DNA from: an uncultured Clostridia bacterium | Lineage (GTDB): Bacteria; Bacillota; Clostridia; TANB77; CAG-508 | Assembly (NCBI GenBank): GCA_944393315.1 | Contig: CALXZT010000001.1 | Coordinates: forward strand, 10,252 to 74,251 | DNA: 64,000 nucleotides | Direction of reading: 5' to 3' | Shown: in pieces, positions 42,841 through 53,562 of the stretch | Layout: each line of letters opens with the position of its first letter | How positions within the stretch are numbered: position 1 is the first letter of the stretch | Notes under the pieces: model-generated | The model's input: only the letters and a program-made list of their open reading frames with translations | Told to the model about the DNA's origin: nothing | Databases searched by the model: none | Program-made: the position numbers and the translations under genes

Positions 42841-44319
42841 ATGGAAAACTTGAATTTATATCAAGATATAGCCAAAAGGACCGATGGTGATATATATGTC
42901 GGAGTTGTTGGTCCTGTAAGAACTGGTAAATCCACTTTTATAAAAAAATTTATGAATTTGCTGGTAATTCCAAACATCGAAAATGAATATAAAAAAGAAC
43001 GAGCTAAAGATGAGCTCCCACAAAGTGCAGGTGGTCGTACTATAATGACTACTGAGCCAAAATTTGTTCCAAATGAGGCTATTGAAATAACTATCGATAA
43101 TAATTTAAAACTGAAAACCAGGTTGGTAGATTGTGTTGGATATTTAGTTGATAATGCAATAGGATATTTGGAAGATGATATGCCTAGAATGGTAAAAACG
43201 CCATGGTTTGAAGAAGAAATTCCTTTTGAAAAAGCTGCTGAGATTGGAACCAAAAAGGTAATTGAAGAACATTCTACTATTGGAATTGTCGTTACAACTG
43301 ATGGGTCAATAACAGATATTCCAAGAGAAGATTATGTAATTGCTGAAGAGCGTGTAGTTTCTGAGTTAAAATCACTTCATAAACCTTTTATAATATTACT
43401 TAACTCTAATAATCCAAATGCTCCTGAAACTCTAAGCCTTGCCGCCTCATTAACTACTAAGTATAATGTGCAGGTAATCCCTTTAAATTGTGAAGAACTT
43501 TCAATAGATGATATTAATAATATATTCTCAAAAGTTTTATATGAATTTCCAATTGAACAAATTTCTATTAATCTTCCAAAATGGGTAGACGGATTAGATT
43601 TTACTCATCCTTTAAAAACTCAAATATTCCAAGAAATAAAAGAGGCTTTTAAAGATGTAAGTGTTTTAAAAGAAATAAATGCTTGTACAAACGCACTTGT
43701 ATCATCAGAAGTAATAACTTCTGCTACTCCAACTGACATTATGCTAGGAAATGGAAATGTTTGTGTTACTATTAGTGTTAGAGAGGAATTATTCTATAGA
43801 GTACTTTCTGAAATGACAGGTGTCTCAATAGCTAATGAGGGAGATTTATTCTCTACAATTTCATCTCTTTCAGAAGCTAAAAAGAAATATGATAAAGTTG
43901 CATATGCTTTAGAAGAAGTAAATGCTAAAGGCTATGGAATTGTAACTCCTTCAATTGATGAACTTGTTTTAGATGAACCTGAAATGGTTAAACAAGGTTC
44001 TAGGTTTGGTATAAAATTACATGCAACAGCTCCTTCTATACATATGATTAGAGCTAATATTGAAACCGAAGTTTCTCCAATTGTTGGTTCAGAAAAACAG
44101 TCTGAAGAACTTGTAAATTACTTACTTTCAGAGTTTGAAAATGATCCAAAACAAATTTGGTCTTCAAATATTTTTGGAAAGAGCTTGCATGAGCTTGTTA
44201 ATGAAGGATTGCAAACTAAACTTTCTAAAATGCCTGATGAGGCTCAAGCTAAACTTCAAGAAACTTTAGAACGAATTGTAAATGAAGGTAGTGGTGGATT
44301 AATTTGTATAATATTATAA
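42841..44319 (+). CDS. spoIVA: stage IV sporulation protein A (spore coat morphogenetic ATPase)
   Basis: GVVGPVRTGKSTFIKKFM Walker A at the N-terminus. 492 aa. SD AGGAGGT. Confidence 0.95.
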   Translation: MENLNLYQDIAKRTDGDIYVGVVGPVRTGKSTFIKKFMNLLVIPNIENEYKKERAKDELPQSAGGRTIMTTEPKFVPNEAIEITIDNNLKLKTRLVDCVGYLVDNAIGYLEDDMPRMVKTPWFEEEIPFEKAAEIGTKKVIEEHSTIGIVVTTDGSITDIPREDYVIAEERVVSELKSLHKPFIILLNSNNPNAPETLSLAASLTTKYNVQVIPLNCEELSIDDINNIFSKVLYEFPIEQISINLPKWVDGLDFTHPLKTQIFQEIKEAFKDVSVLKEINACTNALVSSEVITSATPTDIMLGNGNVCVTISVREELFYRVLSEMTGVSIANEGDLFSTISSLSEAKKKYDKVAYALEEVNAKGYGIVTPSIDELVLDEPEMVKQGSRFGIKLHATAPSIHMIRANIETEVSPIVGSEKQSEELVNYLLSEFENDPKQIWSSNIFGKSLHELVNEGLQTKLSKMPDEAQAKLQETLERIVNEGSGGLICIIL

Positions 44320-44405: not shown

Positions 44406-44450
44406 AGGAATGAACTCTGCAATTTACAGAACTCATTCCTTTGTTTCTAA
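44406..44450 (+). terminator. rho-independent terminator after spoIVA (AGGAATGA...TCATTCCT + TTTGTTTCT)
   Basis: Read directly. Confidence 0.5.
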
Positions 44451-45007
44451 TATTTTATTTTATCTATTTGTTTTTTCTTTATAGCTCTTTGTTTTTTCTT
44501 TTTATAAATGTAATTATTATAGCTAAACTTTAAAAGTAAAGATAAAAAGATAAAAACACTTGTTATTTTTGATTGCAATATTTCTAGCACTATTCCCAGG
44601 AAATGTATATTTACTACTTTCTTTCCAATAATCTGATTGTTTGTCACTTTTTCAATATCAGGGTAATAGTTTTTATTAGATTTTGTAGTATATTCTTTTT
44701 CTTTGTTTATAATTTTGTTTATCCTTGTTTTGTTATTAATCTTATAAGCAATAATATCTCCTTCTTTTAATTCTTTTTCATCTACTTTTTTTACTATAAC
44801 TAAATCATTTTCATTTATATCTTCTTCCATCAAATCATTTTTCATGCAGAAAAAACTTATTCCAAATACTTCAAAATAATCATTTTTATTTATAGTTGTA
44901 GTTAATAAAAATATTATATTAAATAAAATTCCAAAACAAATAATTACATATAAACAGTTTAACAATATTTTTCTAAAATTAATTTCTTTCTTTTTTGTTA
45001 TCTTCAA
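44447..45007 (-). CDS. SipW-like signal peptidase paralogue lacking the catalytic Ser/His (probable pseudo-peptidase)
   Basis: Same N-TM/C-TM architecture as the SipW upstream, but SMEP is replaced by FCMKND and THRI by TRIN. Overlaps the upstream gene by 29 nt. Confidence 0.5.
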   Translation of the reverse strand: MKITKKKEINFRKILLNCLYVIICFGILFNIIFLLTTTINKNDYFEVFGISFFCMKNDLMEEDINENDLVIVKKVDEKELKEGDIIAYKINNKTRINKIINKEKEYTTKSNKNYYPDIEKVTNNQIIGKKVVNIHFLGIVLEILQSKITSVFIFLSLLLKFSYNNYIYKKKKQRAIKKKQIDKIKY

Positions 45008-45566
45008 TTTTTTTCTTTTCTCTCCTATATTCCTTCTTTTCTTGCCTTTGCATTCCTATAAACATAAATATCAATATTATTAATAATATTATTAAAAATA
45101 TTATCTTGTTTTGTAGTATTTGTACTAGAATTCCTAAATATGGTATTGTCAAAATGTGTTTTCCCTCTATGCTGTCATAAGTAATTTTAAATGTATCTTC
45201 TATATTATTATTATCACCTTTTGTTGTAAATTTTATTTTACTATCATCATTGTCTATTTTTGTAATTCTATGAGTGATAACCTCTCCATCTTGTATAAAT
45301 GTTATTATATCATGTACTTTTATTTCATCGTCTTTTACTTTTTTAGTTATAATCACATCATTAATATTAATTGTTGGTTCCATGCTATTTGTTTTAATTA
45401 TATATGCTTTATAACCGAATATATTGTTAAAACCAATGTTGTGTTCAGATGAAATAACAATTAAAATAATGTTATAAATCAATATAATAGCAATTATTTC
45501 AATAACTTTTTTAGCCATTTTTGCTTTTTCTTTTCTTCTATTTATTGACTCTAAATCGTATTTCAT
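44979..45566 (-). CDS. sipW: signal peptidase I, archaeal/SipW type
   Basis: NSMEPTI catalytic Ser, ITHRI catalytic His, C-terminal TM. Confidence 0.8.
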   Translation of the reverse strand: MKYDLESINRRKEKAKMAKKVIEIIAIILIYNIILIVISSEHNIGFNNIFGYKAYIIKTNSMEPTININDVIITKKVKDDEIKVHDIITFIQDGEVITHRITKIDNDDSKIKFTTKGDNNNIEDTFKITYDSIEGKHILTIPYLGILVQILQNKIIFLIILLIILIFMFIGMQRQEKKEYRREKKKIEDNKKERN

Positions 45567-45579
45567 TTTTACCTCTTAA

Positions 45580-48500
45580 TTATTTTATAATAAAATACTC
45601 ATAAGCTTCACCAACATAGGTATCTCCATCATATAGTTTATATACTAATTTATATGTACCTGTAACTAAGTTTGGTTTTAACAATAAGAAATATGTTATA
45701 CTTTCTACTGGCTTTGTTGAAACTTCATATTCTTTTTCTCTCTTTGTTGGTGTTAAACTTGTTGTTACATAGTCTTTTAAATCTACTATCGTATAATTTA
45801 GTGAAAATACATCTGAATAGTCTCTTCTATATAGTGAAACTGCTATATTAGGATTACTTAGTGATGATGAATATTTTAAAGTTGTTGAAAGTGAATTACT
45901 TCCACTTGCTGTTTCTCCAGTTTCGTGATTTATAATTTTTGCTTTATCTGGAGTTATTACTTTTAGCCCATATGCAAAGTTAATAATTTTGACATCTACT
46001 TCAACCATATCTGATGCTATTAACCCATAATAAATACCGTCTGAAGAACCAAATGATTCAATTCTTATCTTATAGTCCCCTGTTGCAAGTGTTGTATTAT
46101 TTTGTGTATTTATTTTTATTTTTGCTAATACATCTGTTACTTTATCTGCAATACTTATTCTAGTTGTTCCATCTATTCTTGGATAATATAATTTTCCATC
46201 TAATTCGAAATTTACTCCTAATAGACTGTCATTATTTACGCGATTTCCATTACTATCATAGAAACTTATTTTTATTCCTAACTTTTTATCAAAATAGTGT
46301 GTGTCATAAATTGTTTTTGTTCCTATTATTTCTTGTGTAAATGTAGTAGTTACATTCAAATTAATTGGCTTCCCTAAATAAACTATTTCAGGTTCTATTG
46401 TTGCATCTACTTTTATTGTTGCATCTTTTTCGCAAAATATTGTGTAAATAATGTTTTCTCTTTGAATTCCTAACACTCCTATTATTGTTTGATCTTCTTC
46501 ATCTCTTAGTTCCATTAATAAGGAATTGTCCACTATATTTTCAGTTATGCCACTTTCTGCAAAATTTACGTGAAATATAAAATTCTCATAAATTAAATCT
46601 TCATTTGAATTGTAATAATTAGCAAACATTGCATTCTCATTGAATTTATTATCATTACTTCCCATTGCAATAAAGTCTGATAGTGAATATATGTATTTAT
46701 TATTATTTACATCCTCTTGTGTTACTATATAATAATAGTATTGATCTGTTGCCATATCTAGCATTGTTAATTTTGTGTTTTTTGGAAATACATATGGTTC
46801 ATTTTTTGAGTTTCTTGATACTAAAACTCTATTATAATTTTGGTATTGTTCACTATAGTCTCTTTCCGAAAAGTCTCGTAATAATAAAGAACAATATATT
46901 GAAAAGGCACTAGTACTTGTTATTGTTGTATCAGTAGTTGTAAATAATCCAAATTCTTGTCCTGGTGTAATTGCAGCTTCATAGTAATCATCTTGGAATA
47001 ATGCTGTTGATAAAGTAATATCTATATCTATATATGAAATTTTATAATTTAAATCATCTATTGGTGTCATAACTTGGAGTCTTATTTTAACTTCTCCTAA
47101 TGCTTGTTTTTTTGTAAGATTTTGTGAATGATAAAAACAGAAATTTAATACTGGAGTATAATTTGTGTTATCTGAATTATAATTAGTTGTTCCAACATAT
47201 TTTCCACCATCTTGTGTTAAAAATGTGGTTTTTCCTTTTGTCTGCCACCCCATATTTCCTGTTTTCATTAATAATCCAAACTGTGTATTTGCTTTTTCTT
47301 CATCTAGTTCAACTGATTCTATTAAACTTGGATCTACTAATGATACTTCATTTATAAGTCCAGATGAAAATCCAGATATTGTAAATTTAATGTTTGGATC
47401 TGCAAATCCAGCTAAAGCTAATTCATAAGTTCCTAAAGTCGCATATTTAGAAGCTACCATCTCTATTGGGAATACTTTAACCTCCATCTCTTTTCCTACA
47501 ATCCACATATAATAAATATCAGCATCTGGTGTTGGTTTTACGTAGTCTACTTTTATATTACCTTCTTCATTGTAATTTGTATAAAAGCCATCTACTTTAA
47601 TATCATGCTCTGGATTAGTTAAATGTTCTGCCATTACATAAGAATTAGATACAAAAGTTCCTTCATTTGTTATTTGATCTCCATTATTATATCCATTATG
47701 ATATAATCCTGTACTTGTACTAGGATTATTTCTGTTTGTAAATAATCCTAAGAAAAACATTCCATGTACTTGTCCATATAATGTTGCCTTCTCATTTAAA
47801 GCTACATTTAAATTTTTCCCCTCTAACATATATATTCTATTATCTACATTTTTAGATATTACCCCTGTTTCTTCGTCTATTGTTACAGTTCCTTTTACTT
47901 CTACACCATTTTCGTCAACTAGACTATCTAGTTTTGTAAGTAAGTTTGCACCATTACATAAATATAATACTGAGTTGTTTTTCAATTTAACCTGATCTAC
48001 TCGACTTATTGAGAAAAATGTTCCTGAATACTCATTTGTCCTATCTGTTGCACCTGATAGCGAAATAGCCGAATTTATTATTGTTGCACAATTTGTTCTT
48101 TGTAGAGAAACATTACTTTGTGGCTTATTAGGAGTTCCATAATTTTTAATTGTTATATAACTTGTTCCACTTGTACTAGATGCATTTCCTGAACCAAATA
48201 TACTTCCTAAAATTGCAAAGTTTTCATGTCTGTTTCCATTTATTTGTATATCAATTCCTACAGTTACACTTATAAACTCAAAGTCATATATTTCGCTTCC
48301 TGAAGCATTTGCTTCCCCTCCACCAAATACAGTTCCCTCAATTTTAATATCTCCTATCTCTAAGTTATTATTTCCTACTGCATCATATCCTATATTGGTT
48401 TGAGTTTTTCCATAAACTATTGATGTATTTGCTCCTCCATATACGTTTTTTCCAATATTTCCACCTACTATATTGACTGTGCTTTGAGAATTATTGTTAG

Positions 48501-51500
48501 TCTCGGTTCCAGTTGCTGCTTGATTTCCTCCTCCAAATACACTATTAGTTATTTGATTTTCTCCCTCCATTGTTAAATTGGTATTTCCATAAACTACAGC
48601 TGAAACTCCATTTCCTCCTGCATATAAACTATTTTCTAATTTTGAATTTTTAACATATACATATGTATTTTGAGTAACTGTTCCTTCATTTCCACCACCA
48701 TATACATTGTCTCCTACTTCTGCACCTACTAAGTGTAAATTTGTACTGGTTTCTACTCCTGCTTGATTTCCTCCTCCAAATACATTTTTGCTTACTTTTC
48801 CATTTATATATACATTTGTTTCATTCGTAATTGCTTGGTTTCCACCACCATATATGTTATTAGCTCCACCACCATTAATTGTAATATTTGTTGTTGTTGT
48901 CATTCCTCCTAGGTTGTTTCCTCCATATACTGTACCTATAGTGTATTCAATAATTTCAGAGTCATTTGTAATTATAAAACTTTCTTCTACATTACCACTT
49001 ATATTAGAGCCACCAAATATTGTTCCTATATTTCCTCCTTTTGTTTCTATATTAGTTGTCGTAACTCCTGCTTGATTTCCTCCTCCAAATATGTTTGTTA
49101 TTGTTCCTTCTGTGACCTTTATATTAGAAGTTATTGATGTTGCTTTGTCACCACCACCATATATATTGGTAATTATTCCTCCTTTTATATTAGTGCTAGT
49201 AGAATTTGTTGTTCCTCCTTCATTTTTTCCACCTGCATATACTTCTTCTACTATTCCTCCAGTTATTGTGACAATTGAATTTGTAACTTCTGCTTGGTTT
49301 CCACCTCCAAAAACCTTTTTTTGTGTTCCTCCTATTACATTAACATTTGTAGTTCCTTCAATACTTCCTAAGTTTCCACCTCCATAGATGTCTCCTGTAT
49401 GTATTCCATTTTCTATATTAATATATGTATTTCCTTGTGTTTTAGAAATATTTCCTCCACCATATACTTCTGTTGCTAAATCACTCTCGATTTTTATATT
49501 TGAATTTCCAATTAATTTAGCCATTTCTTCAAACCCTGAAATTCCTTGTCCTGCTCCAAATATTTTTCCTTCGATTGTTGGTGTTCCTTTTATTTCTATA
49601 TTACTTGTTCCAGTCATTTGTGCAAGTTCTGGTTTATTTGTAAAATTATATCCGCATCCTGCTGCATATATATTTCCTTTTATTATTGGGTTTCCATCTA
49701 TGATTATATAGCTATCTCCATATAAAGCTCCACCATCATCTGCTGTTACATTTCTATTTAAATATTCTGTATATCCATATCCTCCTCCATAGATATTTCC
49801 TGTAATTGTTCCACCTGTTATGTTTATATTTACAGAAGTTTCAAAATCTTGACCATATGTTTTATATGGGTCTGATGAATTGTTACTATATCCTGTTACT
49901 CCTCCTGCTCCTGCTCCATAAATATTTCCTGTTACATCTCCGCCTTCTATATTTATATTAACAGTTCCGTAAAAATACGAATCACATGTATTTCCTGTGG
50001 CATTTGGATATCCTACTATATCCATGTTTCTACCTAAACATCCACCATATAATTCTGCTATACTTCCTCCTAATACATTAATTGTAGTTTCTCCTAAAAA
50101 TGTGTTTATTGGATATCTCCAATTATTGGGTCTACTACTAGAATCTCCTATACTTCCTCCCAGTACTCTACCAATTTTTCCGTTTTTTATAGTTTCTGTT
50201 ACTCTTGAATAATTGTTTCCACTTGCAGATCCTCCAACTAATAGGTTAACATCATAATCATATTCTGATGCTGTGGTACTATTTTTTATATCTATTGTTA
50301 CAGATACTTTAAATGAATCATCCATAGATGAGCCCATAAAGTTATGTGATGTTGTTTGATTTAATCCACTTGATGTTCCTGGTGTTCCTCCCAAAACTAT
50401 TCTTCCATATGTTCCACTTTTTATTATTAATTCTGAATCATTATTTGGCAATTTTGTTTTATTGTATTGATACCAACCCGCAAAAACATGAAATGCTGGT
50501 GCATTGTTCTCTCCTATTAATCCTTGGTCTGAATTTGCATCTTGATAATTTACCATTGTTACTTGTTCACCAATAGTTAAACTATTTCCTTGCAAGATAA
50601 AATACATTGAGTTATTGGTTCCTCCACCATTTAACTCTATATATTGAAATGTAAGATCTGCCGTTAAGAACCTATAATAATCACTTCTTGCCCCAAATCT
50701 TAAAATTGCATTATAATCTTTGTTTCTATATTTTCCTGTTATAGTAACAGCTTTAGCATATGTTGATGAGGTTTGAGAATTGAAAAATGATAATGACGTG
50801 TCATTATATGTCCCAATTATAACTATTACATTACTATTTCTTGTACCTCCACTATCAAGTTTTGAATATGCTGTGCTTAAACTTCTGACAGCAGTTTCTT
50901 CTGTGTACCCGTCATTATTATTATTTCCATTGCTATAGTCTACAAAAATTACCGTTCTGTCTCCATATGTAAATGTATTTTGAGTAGATAGTTGTGGTAT
51001 TACTGTATTTGTAGCAATAAGTGTGTAATCAATACCTTCTTCTAAATTATCTAATGTAAGTGATGTTTCACCTTGTATTGCTCCACCTTCACCTGATAAG
51101 TCTGCCCTATACCATTGAAAAATATAATCACTAACAGAAGTATATTTCATTCCTTCTCCAGTTAAAGTTGCCGTTACACTATTATCGTTTTTATTTACAT
51201 CAAATACAATATCAACATGTATTTTTTTAATCACAAATTTAGTTATTGCATAATAGTTTCCATCATTTGTAATTACTACCATGTCTTCATCTTGCTCATA
51301 ATTAGGAGTCCATACATATGTATTACCTTGAATACTAGTATCTTCAATTCCGTTTTTATACCATGTCATATCATAGTTGCCTATTTGATATGGGTCATTT
51401 ACTATTATTTTATAAGTAAATTGTGCTGGTTCTGTTTTTGTAGTTGTTAATCTTTCTTTAAATGCAAATACATTGTTTTCATATAGCCATGTTAAGTATT

Positions 51501-53535
51501 TATTACTAGTTGTTATATTTCCATTAAATATGTCTAGAATAGCTGACATATCGGTAGTATAACTACCTTTGTTAACACCTTGTACATATCCTACATTATT
51601 GCTACTATTACTTTTTCTTGCTGTAGAACTTCCTGATGTTACAGTCTGTGTAAATGTTGTTCCTGCTGCTGAATAATTGGTATAATATGCATTGTTTGTA
51701 GTTAAATTCCCAGCATCATTACCATTCCATATAGCCTGAAATCCACTTGATGATGAATAACTTGTATTATTTATTAATGCAGCAAAAATTGGTCCTATAT
51801 ATCCATTTGCTTGAATTTGCCCGTCATATAAGCAATTTGTTGGCCAAACTGGTTGTGAACGAATCGTTCCGACTATTCCACCAGTATGGTACTGTCCTCT
51901 ACCATCTCTTGAGAACCAGCCAGAGCTTACAGTTGCTGTTGAATCTAATGTTATTTGAACATTAGAATAACAATTGTTTATTATATATCTATTATTTGCT
52001 CCTGGATCAGTATCACTTGAAGAAGTATTTGTTATATATCCTACAACACCTCCTACTGCAAATTGAAATTGGTAATTATATACTTGAATTTCGTTTGTAT
52101 CTGTTATTGTACTATTTGAAACTATTACATTTTCTATATTAGCATTTTTGTATAAAGATCCTGTTAAACATCCTATTCTTATTCCTTCTTCATCTTGTCT
52201 CCACCATTCGCCAGTTGATCCACTTGCTGTTATGTCTATTTTTATTGAGGTTAATTCTAAATTTCTTATTATACTTCTTGAATTTCCTCCTCCAATGCTT
52301 GCAAAAATTCCATAAGAGTCATAGTTTTGTTCTGGTAAAGTTGAAATAGTTATTTTGGCATTTGCAATAGTATGACCTGCTCCATCTAAAATTCCTCTAA
52401 ATGAATTTTCTGTTGTTCCAATAGGTTTCCATTCATTATTTCCTAAATCAATATCTGAAGCTAATTGAAAATAAATTCCTTCAAATGTTGTTCCGTTATT
52501 TACTTGTTGAGCTAAATATGAAAGTTCATCACCATCAGCGATTAAATATGGCTTCTCTTGTGTTCCTTCTCCCCAACTAAATGTCGTAGAGACTGTATTT
52601 CCATCCCATACATTTTGAGCATTGAATTCAGAACTTGTTGTTTCTTCAACCTCTAGCGCTAATTGAGCTGGTTCTCCAAGTATTGCATAAGTTGAAAATT
52701 TATTTGCGCTAAATATTACTCTGTCTTCTTGAACTTCAATTTCTTTTACTTCTTCTGTTTGATTTTCATCATCTATATGTATTACCTTATATTGTTCCTC
52801 TTCTGTTATTGTTATTCCTGATATTGTTACCTGCACATCTTCGTCAAATTGATTTGGTTCAAATTCTTGTTCTTCTACTATTAGCTTTATATCATATGCT
52901 GCTCTTATAGTTGTTTTTTCTTTCATATGTTTAACTAATTTGGGTGTAACCTCTTCTATGTCTACTTTTTGAATCTTAATTTGAGCTTCTACTGGCATAA
53001 ATCCAACTATTGTTATTTTATGTTCTTGTGTTACATTTTCTAATACTTTATTATATAATAATTGATTATTTTTTTGTTTTGTTTCATATACTGCTTTTAA
53101 TTCAATTTGTTCATTTTTTAATTCTTCTTCTGTTAAATATATTTTTTCTCCTGGTAGTTTTTCTTGCACATTTATTTTTTCGTTATTTTCAATTATCTCA
53201 CTTGTACTAGTCTCTTGTGTTTGCTCTATATTTTGAATTGTATTTTTTTCTTCATTTTCTTCTGTTTTCTGAATTAATTTTGTTTCTACTAAATATTTTT
53301 CTATTTTCTTTTCATTTACCACTGATGGAAGAGTTATAACTGTACCACTTTCTCCTTCATTTACAGCTTGCAACATATAAATTTCATCACTTAATATACC
53401 GCTTGTATCTATAATATTTGCGGTTATATTGGTTAGCTTACTTGCTCTTGAATCGGTAAATGCTTTTATTTGTATAATCAACATTAGAATTAAAATAATT
53501 AATATTACTATTTTTCTTTTATTTATTTTTTTCAT
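45580..53535 (-). CDS. giant (2651 aa) secreted/cell-surface repeat protein with predicted beta-helix-type Gly/Asn-rich repeats
   Basis: N-terminal signal/TM. Long central run of degenerate repeats (xGGGNxA...IYGGGN, VFGGGNQAGV and similar). Partly conserved 25-30 nt DNA repeats at ~48520, ~48760 and ~49070. Confidence 0.8.
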   Translation of the reverse strand: MKKINKRKIVILIILILMLIIQIKAFTDSRASKLTNITANIIDTSGILSDEIYMLQAVNEGESGTVITLPSVVNEKKIEKYLVETKLIQKTEENEEKNTIQNIEQTQETSTSEIIENNEKINVQEKLPGEKIYLTEEELKNEQIELKAVYETKQKNNQLLYNKVLENVTQEHKITIVGFMPVEAQIKIQKVDIEEVTPKLVKHMKEKTTIRAAYDIKLIVEEQEFEPNQFDEDVQVTISGITITEEEQYKVIHIDDENQTEEVKEIEVQEDRVIFSANKFSTYAILGEPAQLALEVEETTSSEFNAQNVWDGNTVSTTFSWGEGTQEKPYLIADGDELSYLAQQVNNGTTFEGIYFQLASDIDLGNNEWKPIGTTENSFRGILDGAGHTIANAKITISTLPEQNYDSYGIFASIGGGNSRSIIRNLELTSIKIDITASGSTGEWWRQDEEGIRIGCLTGSLYKNANIENVIVSNSTITDTNEIQVYNYQFQFAVGGVVGYITNTSSSDTDPGANNRYIINNCYSNVQITLDSTATVSSGWFSRDGRGQYHTGGIVGTIRSQPVWPTNCLYDGQIQANGYIGPIFAALINNTSYSSSSGFQAIWNGNDAGNLTTNNAYYTNYSAAGTTFTQTVTSGSSTARKSNSSNNVGYVQGVNKGSYTTDMSAILDIFNGNITTSNKYLTWLYENNVFAFKERLTTTKTEPAQFTYKIIVNDPYQIGNYDMTWYKNGIEDTSIQGNTYVWTPNYEQDEDMVVITNDGNYYAITKFVIKKIHVDIVFDVNKNDNSVTATLTGEGMKYTSVSDYIFQWYRADLSGEGGAIQGETSLTLDNLEEGIDYTLIATNTVIPQLSTQNTFTYGDRTVIFVDYSNGNNNNDGYTEETAVRSLSTAYSKLDSGGTRNSNVIVIIGTYNDTSLSFFNSQTSSTYAKAVTITGKYRNKDYNAILRFGARSDYYRFLTADLTFQYIELNGGGTNNSMYFILQGNSLTIGEQVTMVNYQDANSDQGLIGENNAPAFHVFAGWYQYNKTKLPNNDSELIIKSGTYGRIVLGGTPGTSSGLNQTTSHNFMGSSMDDSFKVSVTIDIKNSTTASEYDYDVNLLVGGSASGNNYSRVTETIKNGKIGRVLGGSIGDSSSRPNNWRYPINTFLGETTINVLGGSIAELYGGCLGRNMDIVGYPNATGNTCDSYFYGTVNINIEGGDVTGNIYGAGAGGVTGYSNNSSDPYKTYGQDFETSVNINITGGTITGNIYGGGYGYTEYLNRNVTADDGGALYGDSYIIIDGNPIIKGNIYAAGCGYNFTNKPELAQMTGTSNIEIKGTPTIEGKIFGAGQGISGFEEMAKLIGNSNIKIESDLATEVYGGGNISKTQGNTYINIENGIHTGDIYGGGNLGSIEGTTNVNVIGGTQKKVFGGGNQAEVTNSIVTITGGIVEEVYAGGKNEGGTTNSTSTNIKGGIITNIYGGGDKATSITSNIKVTEGTITNIFGGGNQAGVTTTNIETKGGNIGTIFGGSNISGNVEESFIITNDSEIIEYTIGTVYGGNNLGGMTTTTNITINGGGANNIYGGGNQAITNETNVYINGKVSKNVFGGGNQAGVETSTNLHLVGAEVGDNVYGGGNEGTVTQNTYVYVKNSKLENSLYAGGNGVSAVVYGNTNLTMEGENQITNSVFGGGNQAATGTETNNNSQSTVNIVGGNIGKNVYGGANTSIVYGKTQTNIGYDAVGNNNLEIGDIKIEGTVFGGGEANASGSEIYDFEFISVTVGIDIQINGNRHENFAILGSIFGSGNASSTSGTSYITIKNYGTPNKPQSNVSLQRTNCATIINSAISLSGATDRTNEYSGTFFSISRVDQVKLKNNSVLYLCNGANLLTKLDSLVDENGVEVKGTVTIDEETGVISKNVDNRIYMLEGKNLNVALNEKATLYGQVHGMFFLGLFTNRNNPSTSTGLYHNGYNNGDQITNEGTFVSNSYVMAEHLTNPEHDIKVDGFYTNYNEEGNIKVDYVKPTPDADIYYMWIVGKEMEVKVFPIEMVASKYATLGTYELALAGFADPNIKFTISGFSSGLINEVSLVDPSLIESVELDEEKANTQFGLLMKTGNMGWQTKGKTTFLTQDGGKYVGTTNYNSDNTNYTPVLNFCFYHSQNLTKKQALGEVKIRLQVMTPIDDLNYKISYIDIDITLSTALFQDDYYEAAITPGQEFGLFTTTDTTITSTSAFSIYCSLLLRDFSERDYSEQYQNYNRVLVSRNSKNEPYVFPKNTKLTMLDMATDQYYYYIVTQEDVNNNKYIYSLSDFIAMGSNDNKFNENAMFANYYNSNEDLIYENFIFHVNFAESGITENIVDNSLLMELRDEEDQTIIGVLGIQRENIIYTIFCEKDATIKVDATIEPEIVYLGKPINLNVTTTFTQEIIGTKTIYDTHYFDKKLGIKISFYDSNGNRVNNDSLLGVNFELDGKLYYPRIDGTTRISIADKVTDVLAKIKINTQNNTTLATGDYKIRIESFGSSDGIYYGLIASDMVEVDVKIINFAYGLKVITPDKAKIINHETGETASGSNSLSTTLKYSSSLSNPNIAVSLYRRDYSDVFSLNYTIVDLKDYVTTSLTPTKREKEYEVSTKPVESITYFLLLKPNLVTGTYKLVYKLYDGDTYVGEAYEYFIIK

Positions 53536-53562
53536 TAGAAATTCTCCGTATTTATAGTAAAT

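Follow-up and report, generated by a model that had tools for sequence, protein, structure and literature searches.

The sipW pair and the catalytic residues of sipW-B

We analysed a stretch of 64,000 nucleotides (hereafter the window) from an uncultured Clostridia bacterium (GenBank assembly GCA_944393315.1, contig CALXZT010000001.1, positions 10,252 to 74,251 of the forward strand). On its minus strand, the gene for a giant secreted protein is followed, after a gap of 13 nt, by two signal peptidase genes of the SipW type (Table 1). The first of these, sipW-A, encodes a peptidase of the endoplasmic reticulum (ER) type (family S26B); the second, sipW-B, overlaps it by 29 nt. The DNA of the locus has a G+C content of ∼ 27%. 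Both open reading frames (ORFs) of this tandem, which had been noticed in a preliminary description of the sequence, were confirmed. We found that sipW-B has lost the residues on which catalysis by SipW depends and has nevertheless been maintained as a gene, and we argue below that its product may well be a non-catalytic partner of the active enzyme.

The product of sipW-A is canonical, as had been described, with Ser61 in the motif SMEPT (codon 45384..45386) and His99 in THRI (codon 45270..45272); it also has Asp118 in TKGDNN (codon 45213..45215) and a further Asp124. All four residues are invariant in the alignment of its orthologues. Its first transmembrane segment (TM1) carries a YN motif and the second one (TM2) is followed by a conserved cytoplasmic tail, RREKKKIE. 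The tail motif E.RREKKKIE of the active SipW (44979..45040 of the window, minus strand) is invariant even across very divergent lineages. The Shine-Dalgarno-like (SD-like) AGGAGAG of sipW-B sits in the RRE codons of this tail, at the 3' end of sipW-A. The same nucleotides thus encode the sipW-A tail and provide the SD sequence and start of sipW-B, so that the two constraints are inseparable.

The product of sipW-B has its best match in the archaeal/ER-type profile TIGR02228 (55.5 bits, cutoff 51.85; sipW-A scores 94.5 bits), also matches PF00717 (29.7 bits, cutoff 23.3), and remains below the cutoff of 47 bits for the bacterial P-type profile TIGR02227 (27.5 bits). A comparison of the B and A families with hhalign gave a probability of 99.9% and an E-value of 4.8e-32 over 166 columns. 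In BLASTP, sipW-B is 39% identical to sipW-A over 106 residues (E-value 2e-16) and 29% identical to sipW-C, a third SipW gene of the same cluster; its greater closeness to sipW-A points to a tandem duplication of that gene. Neither member of the pair reaches the equivalog cutoff of the SipW profile NF046067 (190 bits), which would indicate strict orthology with the Bacillus protein: sipW-A scores 103.6 bits and sipW-B 46.5 bits.

The register between the two proteins was taken from four independent alignments that agree with each other: MAFFT with 120 homologues, BLASTP, HMMER against the solved human SEC11A, and hhalign. The SMEPT of sipW-A aligns with L59-M-E-E-D of sipW-B, which puts Leu59 (codon 44831..44833) in place of the nucleophilic Ser, and Leu occupies this column in 118 of the 120 aligned homologues of sipW-B. 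The general-base His of sipW-A falls in a 3-residue gap (ITH-RITKI versus (T/I/V)-RINKI). In sipW-B, Thr94-Arg95 (44723..44728) flank this deletion, and all 120 aligned homologues lack the His and have T, I or V before an invariant Arg. Finally, TKGDNN aligns with TKSNKN, the Asp of GDNN being replaced by Asn111 (44675..44677; ≥ 90% conserved), and the Asp six residues past this position is retained (D124 in sipW-A, D117 in sipW-B). No catalytic residues at shifted positions were found in any of the four alignments. Thus, the preliminary description was right that the Ser is lost and that the His is missing at TRIN, but its register, which placed FCMKND at the Ser position, was off by five residues. 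The Cys of that motif, Cys54, lies 5 residues upstream of the Ser column and is variable (present in 62 of the 120 homologues), and a Ser-to-Cys replacement was therefore rejected. The correction matters because a Cys could serve as a nucleophile whereas a Leu cannot.

In Bacillus subtilis SipW, Ser47, His87 and Asp106 were identified as the essential triad by mutagenesis (Tjalsma et al. 2000, as cited in PMC8767453). With Asp106 equated with the GDNN Asp by spacing, and with Ser56 and His96 of SEC11A as the nucleophile and the general base, respectively, the equivalents of all three triad residues are substituted or deleted in sipW-B. Judging from these alignments, sipW-B should be unable to cleave. 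As an S26B homologue that fails three defining catalytic features, it is to be filed as a non-peptidase homologue, and it falls under the operational definition of a pseudoenzyme, its catalytic residues being gone and the gene being kept by selection. The term pseudo-peptidase, used for it in the preliminary description, is therefore apt, the more so as the fold is kept.

An AlphaFold2 model of sipW-B, built from a 73-sequence alignment, had a mean predicted local distance difference test score (pLDDT) of 84.2 and consists of a helix (residues 11–40), strands within residues 45–134 and a long helix (147–185). Its matches in a Foldseek search of the PDB were the LexA C-domain, as the best one, Streptococcus pyogenes SipA (4n31) at rank 2, and SEC11C/SEC11A. 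Both transmembrane segments that had been ascribed to the protein are present in the model and the hydropathy profile, TM2 being the weaker one. The two ends are basic, with a net charge of +3 at the N-terminus and +9 at the C-terminus; hydropathy and charge fit a topology in which both termini would be inside and the domain outside. A conserved Asn is found in the TM1 of both sipW-A and sipW-B and is invariant (N30) in the latter. Equivalents of the residues that line the S1/S3 pockets of SEC11A (groove residues from PMC13385932) are kept in sipW-B: M60 for M57, I64 for F61 and M55 for V52.

Conservation of sipW-B and its divergent relatives

The order giant gene, active SipW gene, degenerate SipW gene was found in all 20 Clostridia loci compared, which come from ∼ 16 species-level uncultured gut metagenome-assembled genomes (MAGs), including Hadza human samples and goat colon. 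The ORFs of sipW-B are intact in these loci (183–208 codons) and their products are 40–100% identical. A search for homologues returned 166 matches at E ≤ 1e-3, the best 120 of which are 160–217 amino acids long and 50–100% identical to sipW-B, and at least 12 contigs, drawn from independent samples, encode the identical protein. Invariant in the family are N30 in TM1, M60, IAY86-88, R95-I-N97, T108, E119, G128 and S146; a family-specific motif, TKSNKNYYPDIE, is nearly invariant, and the tail has the conserved consensus KKKER.RKKK. The ratio of nonsynonymous to synonymous substitutions (dN/dS) between orthologues, estimated by the Nei-Gojobori method (NG86), was 0.21–0.49 for sipW-B and 0.13–0.51 for sipW-A, values that are rough since dS is partly saturated. 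An intact ORF of 186 codons in DNA of such low G+C content, with the same substitutions in at least 20 loci, is far beyond chance, and sipW-B is under purifying selection, maintained rather than decaying.

The start region is conserved as well. The sequence (T/C)AGGAGAG-N12-TTG precedes sipW-B in 14 of 14 loci, with TTG in 13 of them and GTG in the remaining one (L008), and the overlap with sipW-A varies from 20 to 38 nt. A comparable SD-start junction, with a spacing of 9 or 12 nt, is also present in the divergent pairs of loci L035-L037 and L039. In the window, a run of seven A residues (45008..45014, minus strand), within Lys-Lys-Lys-Ile codons of sipW-A, lies directly before the TTG of sipW-B. 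A frameshift fusion of the two genes at this run was considered and rejected as the conserved mechanism: sipW-B is in the +1 frame relative to sipW-A, and the position of the run beside the TTG is not conserved (only four A residues in L005), whereas SD-N12-TTG is.

Profile searches against 1.84 billion cluster representatives yielded 7688 matches at E ≤ 1e-3. Among the best 150 of these, 124 were full-length, 60 of which scored higher with the B-type than with the A-type hidden Markov model (HMM). The Ser, the His or both are missing in 55 of the 60 B-type representatives, and the replacements are diverse: L, A, T, M, K and others for the Ser, and N, S, R, K, Q and others for the His. Many of these second copies retain an NYY.D.E-like motif. 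We looked up the genomic surroundings of seven divergent members, and all seven overlap a preceding SipW gene in which the motifs with Ser, His and Asp are present (in L033 this gene is frameshifted). Where the contig extends far enough, giant ORFs lie upstream. The Ser, His and Asp are still found in two of these members, P0183 and P0140. The coexistence of triad-bearing and variously degenerate second copies implies that the tandem pair is old and that the second copy lost catalysis later, apparently more than once. Since the losses were repeated and different, the conserved job of the second copy seems to be independent of cleavage.

In two loci, the active SipW gene upstream of an intact second copy is itself broken by a frameshift or stop: L008 (9442..10035, 45+136 amino acids) and L033 (7432..8032, 98+69 amino acids). 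Each case is confined to one contig and may reflect either mis-assembly in A-runs or the true disappearance of the active copy.

Some relatives are fusion proteins. P0245 (385 amino acids) combines a degenerate SipW-like module, in which the Ser is replaced by Ile and the His by Asn, with an active module, and P0241 combines an active module with a degenerate one that has Lys in place of the Ser and has lost the GD. P0173 consists of two active SipW modules joined by a linker of ∼ 200 amino acids rich in acidic residues. As every module comes with two membrane helices of its own, such fusions are topologically consistent. They may be taken as hints, of the Rosetta-stone type, that SipW modules work in pairs.

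Possible roles of sipW-B

The giant protein has 2570–2940 amino acids across the 20 loci and is sometimes split in two. Its N-terminus (53440..53535 of the window, minus strand), aligned over these loci, consists of MKK..K+, a hydrophobic stretch of ∼ 16 residues and [IL][KR]AF.[DNK]S[RQ]A, a degree of conservation that suggests a dedicated recognition or cleavage site. The Ala-Phe resembles the cleavage region of TasA; the SipW-cognate HMM gave no match there. We presume that the giant protein of 2651 amino acids is the likely client of the A/B pair, rather than the small secreted proteins of the cluster. The latter had been called "TasA-like" substrates, a relationship that could not be established: the AlphaFold2 model of the 197-amino-acid secreted protein (pLDDT 74) had no significant Foldseek match in the PDB, with TasA (5of1_B) at rank 7, a probability of 0.51 and a TM-score of 0.30.

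With moderate confidence, we favour the explanation that sipW-B is a membrane-anchored, non-catalytic partner of the active SipW in the handling of this giant exported protein. The two proteins would be made together by translational coupling and would lie side by side in the membrane, where the TM1 Asn of both may help their association. In this view sipW-B would act on the giant protein, at its conserved signal peptide and N-terminal region, as a holdase or a non-catalytic subunit: it might present this region to sipW-A, stabilise sipW-A, or retain the client, whether cleaved or not, while ∼ 2650 residues are exported. The pair would have arisen by tandem duplication of a SipW gene adjacent to the giant gene, its second copy later losing catalytic residues in different ways, with some lineages keeping an apparently catalytic copy. 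A role of sipW-B as a chaperone or a dock for signal peptides, which the preliminary description had proposed, is plausible in view of the analogy with SipA, the invariable coupling to an active SipW and the existence of fusions of a degenerate with an active module; a physical pairing of sipW-A and sipW-B is plausible because of the fusions, the precedent of a heteromeric mitochondrial peptidase and the conserved Asn in TM1.

The closest functional parallel is SipA of S. pyogenes, a dead signal peptidase homologue encoded in the FCT pilus loci that is needed for pilus polymerisation without proteolysis (PMC4049620). Like SipA/LepA (PDB 4n31), sipW-B combines the S26/LexA fold with replacements of the catalytic residues, is membrane-associated and is encoded in a surface-structure cluster. 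However, SipA is of P-type (Ser-Lys) descent, whereas sipW-B belongs to the SipW branch of the ER type (Ser-His-Asp). SipA functions together with a sortase and with LPXTG pilins, whereas no sortase family was detected among the ten proteins neighbouring sipW-B that were scanned against Pfam and NCBIfam. SipA has no overlapping active paralogue, whereas sipW-B is paired with one, and the groove of SipA is almost fully conserved, whereas that of sipW-B has one wall shortened. Thus, sipW-B would act most like SipA/LepA and yet stand outside that group in its ER-type ancestry, its lack of a sortase context and its active paralogous partner.

Other systems show part of the same picture. B. subtilis SipW, encoded in the tapA-sipW-tasA operon, is homologous to sipW-B and shares its two-helix topology and outside domain, but sipW-B lacks the equivalents of the SipW triad and adjoins the giant gene, not tasA. 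In the mitochondrial inner membrane peptidase (IMP), the S26 paralogues Imp1 and Imp2, together with Som1, form a heteromer with mutual stabilisation (PMC8835746). IMP and the eukaryotic signal peptidase complex (SPC) resemble the proposed pair in that S26 peptidases work there as membrane hetero-oligomers whose partners stabilise each other and shape the choice of substrates (PMC8835746, PMC13385932). However, Imp1 and Imp2 are both catalytic, and the non-catalytic subunits that accompany SEC11 in SPC are not S26 homologues. Finally, among pseudoproteases, the iRhoms (inactive rhomboids) are likewise homologues of a membrane protease that have lost catalysis, and they are described as recognising transmembrane segments of their clients (PMC7618786); they are eukaryotic and unrelated to sipW-B in fold and family.

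Several points weigh against a partner role. The function of sipW-B is inferred. Peptide binding by SipA could not be shown in vitro (PMC4049620), which weakens the analogy itself. The strand that carries the His and forms the other wall of the groove (P93-V95-H96 in SEC11A) is 3 residues shorter in sipW-B; canonical binding of the signal peptide c-region is therefore not assured and may be lost. In most close pairs sipW-B evolves faster than sipW-A (e.g. 67% versus 87% identity), which is compatible with relaxed constraint. The SD lies 12 nt from the start codon, more than is optimal, and a TTG initiates translation weakly. In related clusters of Erysipelotrichaceae and 'Tenericutes' MAGs, homologues of the giant protein occur together with two SipW genes that carry the catalytic motifs, and no degenerate copy was seen among the inspected ORFs; the helper is thus not universally required.

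Alternatively, sipW-B could be a decoy or anchor that binds the signal peptide of the giant protein without cutting it and shields a fraction of the molecules from sipW-A, thereby leaving them tethered to the membrane through the uncleaved signal anchor, or timing their release. We consider this unlikely, although several observations agree with it. No anchor is evident in the giant protein, as its last 30 residues lack an LPXTG-type signal and no family of Pfam or NCBIfam matches it. The hydrophobic stretch at its N-terminus and [IL][KR]AF are strongly conserved; sipW-B retains Met, Ile and Met at the places of the S1/S3 pocket residues of SEC11A; and a start codon as weak as TTG could keep sipW-B at a sub-stoichiometric level. 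The partner model, however, draws on the same evidence, which does not discriminate between them. The shortened His-bearing strand of the groove speaks against a decoy, too, and the triad-bearing second copies of the sister lineages fit a purely protective decoy poorly.

A signalling or regulatory function of the cytoplasmic tail of sipW-B seems improbable. It would have a precedent in B. subtilis SipW, which is described as bifunctional: the 20 residues at its C-terminus turn on matrix genes on surfaces, independently of catalysis (Terra et al. 2012, as cited in PMC8767453). sipW-B does keep TM2 and a very basic tail with a conserved consensus, but its best-conserved parts (IAY, RINKI and TKSNKNYYPDIE) are extracytoplasmic, and the positive-inside rule alone predicts basic tails.

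We regard it as very improbable that sipW-B has remained a peptidase by way of non-canonical residues. The second Asp (D117) is kept, and second copies in sister lineages show Ser + Lys or Thr + His, of which Ser-Lys is the P-type dyad (PMC8767453). In the clade of the window, however, the nucleophile is a Leu and the general-base position is deleted, and over the wider clade of second copies the outside domain has no conserved Ser, Thr, Cys, Lys or His that could stand in (S110, for instance, is G, A, S, F or T). There is equally little to be said for a functionless, decaying duplicate, or for a single gene split by error or joined by frameshifting in the A-run: the run abutting the TTG, the faster evolution of sipW-B and the existence of fused two-domain relatives would fit, but the ORFs are intact in 20 loci with dN/dS below 0.5, independent assemblies give the identical sequence, and sipW-B is in the +1 frame, with the junction AGGAGAG-N12-TTG, rather than the run beside the TTG, being conserved.

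A broader reading can be put forward tentatively. sipW-A and sipW-B might constitute a bacterial two-subunit signal peptidase complex that serves to export, process or retain giant surface proteins, made of a catalytic ER-type subunit and an obligatory dead paralogue, within a conserved cluster of ∼ 20 kb to which the McrB-like AAA+ protein, the DUF2357 protein and the small secreted proteins also belong. Degenerate second-copy SipWs would then be pseudo-signal-peptidases that are widespread in uncultured gut Firmicutes, are mis-annotated and go back to repeated losses of catalysis. We hold this to be possible, but clearly less probable than the partner role as such.

Our searches of the literature turned up neither a degenerate SipW paralogue nor this gene pair. 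The degenerate SipW is a real and conserved feature, all carriers found being uncultured gut MAGs, and it is probably a non-cutting helper of a kind that we did not find described for this type of signal peptidase; non-catalytic signal peptidase homologues have so far been known from the P-type branch (SipA/LepA), to which an ER-type counterpart is now added. The naturally occurring triad-bearing intermediates and fusions offer a comparative system for finding out what a dead signal peptidase does. The same system bears on whether bacterial SipW enzymes form hetero-oligomers like SPC or IMP. The names "signal peptidase I" and "S24 family peptidase", given in the source databases to such proteins that pass the TIGR02228 cutoff, overstate their activity.

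The surrounding gene cluster

Table 1. Genes and sequence elements of the sipW locus (coordinates refer to the window)
Feature	Position	Strand	Basis or remark
spoIVA	42841..44319	plus	convergent with sipW-B
Imperfect hairpin between convergent spoIVA and sipW-B	44407..44439	–	read from the sequence
sipW-B, catalytically degenerate SipW paralogue, 186 amino acids, TTG start	44447..45007	minus	ORF, profiles, alignments
Overlap of sipW-A and sipW-B, 29 nt	44979..45007	minus	ORF coordinates
Start codon TTG of sipW-B	45005..45007	minus	ORF and sequence
SD-like AGGAGAG, 12 nt 5' of the sipW-B TTG	45020..45026	minus	read from the sequence
sipW-A, ER-type (S26B) signal peptidase, 195 amino acids	44979..45566	minus	ORF and profile matches
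Giant secreted protein, 2651 amino acids, rich in GGGN-type repeats	45580..53535	minus	ORF list
525-amino-acid protein	53563..55140	minus	ORF; upstream of the giant gene, conserved there
197-amino-acid secreted protein	58166..58759	minus	ORF after sipW-C, start overlapped 4 nt by sipW-C
sipW-C, third SipW gene	58756..59334	minus	13 kb upstream of the sipW-A/sipW-B pair, same cluster
DUF2357 protein	59336..60484	minus	family match
McrB-like AAA+ protein, N-terminal membrane segment	60546..62069	minus	weak McrB match

The genes downstream of the sipW pair differ between loci and include spoIVA (as in the window), ruvB, a TMEM164-like gene and others. In the window, the hairpin between the convergent spoIVA and sipW-B has a T-rich tract on the plus strand only, where it is followed by TTTGTTTC. 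Both transcription units probably end at this hairpin, which is weak for the minus strand; a consensus terminator scan reported no intrinsic terminator after sipW-B, including at this hairpin.

Upstream of the giant gene, a protein of ∼ 524 amino acids is encoded wherever the contig extends that far. The 525-amino-acid protein of the window, which has no N-terminal hydrophobic stretch, has homologues in L025, L026, L030 and L037 and may be a coiled-coil protein, a call made from reading its sequence. The giant protein, the 525-amino-acid protein and the small secreted proteins have no Pfam or NCBIfam family. The exceptions among the neighbours are the DUF2357 protein, the McrB-like protein, which matches weakly, and a protein of 342 amino acids, whose SipW-cognate signal stays below threshold (18.1 versus 19 bits). 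A cluster annotation look-up returned nothing for sipW-A, sipW-B, the giant protein and the 525-amino-acid protein.

The product of sipW-C has the Ser and His of an active SipW and reads TKGVANEEED, with Val in place of the GDNN Asp and the Asp six residues later kept. The 197-amino-acid protein encoded after sipW-C has 701 matches, the best 120 of which are 66–100% identical, and no Pfam or NCBIfam family.

The gene for the giant protein is present as two overlapping ORFs in L005, L007, L010, L019, L020, L022, L023 and L037 (e.g. 1174 + 1691 amino acids), and the split site is identical in the closely related L005 and L010. Such a split could be a real two-gene version, programmed frameshifting or a recurrent assembly error.

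The whole cluster of ∼ 19.5 kb (44447..63953, minus strand) has homologues in Clostridia, Erysipelotrichaceae and 'Tenericutes' MAGs (L025, L026, L030, L033, L037 and L038). Its members are the genes for small secreted proteins, a 344-amino-acid protein, the McrB-like AAA+ protein, the DUF2357 protein, sipW-C, the 525-amino-acid protein, the giant protein and sipW-A. The McrB-like protein is encoded by the most conserved gene of the cluster, with 65–71% identity between classes. A McrB/DUF2357 pair within such an export or fibre cluster would ordinarily be taken for a restriction system; in this case it appears to belong to the machinery.

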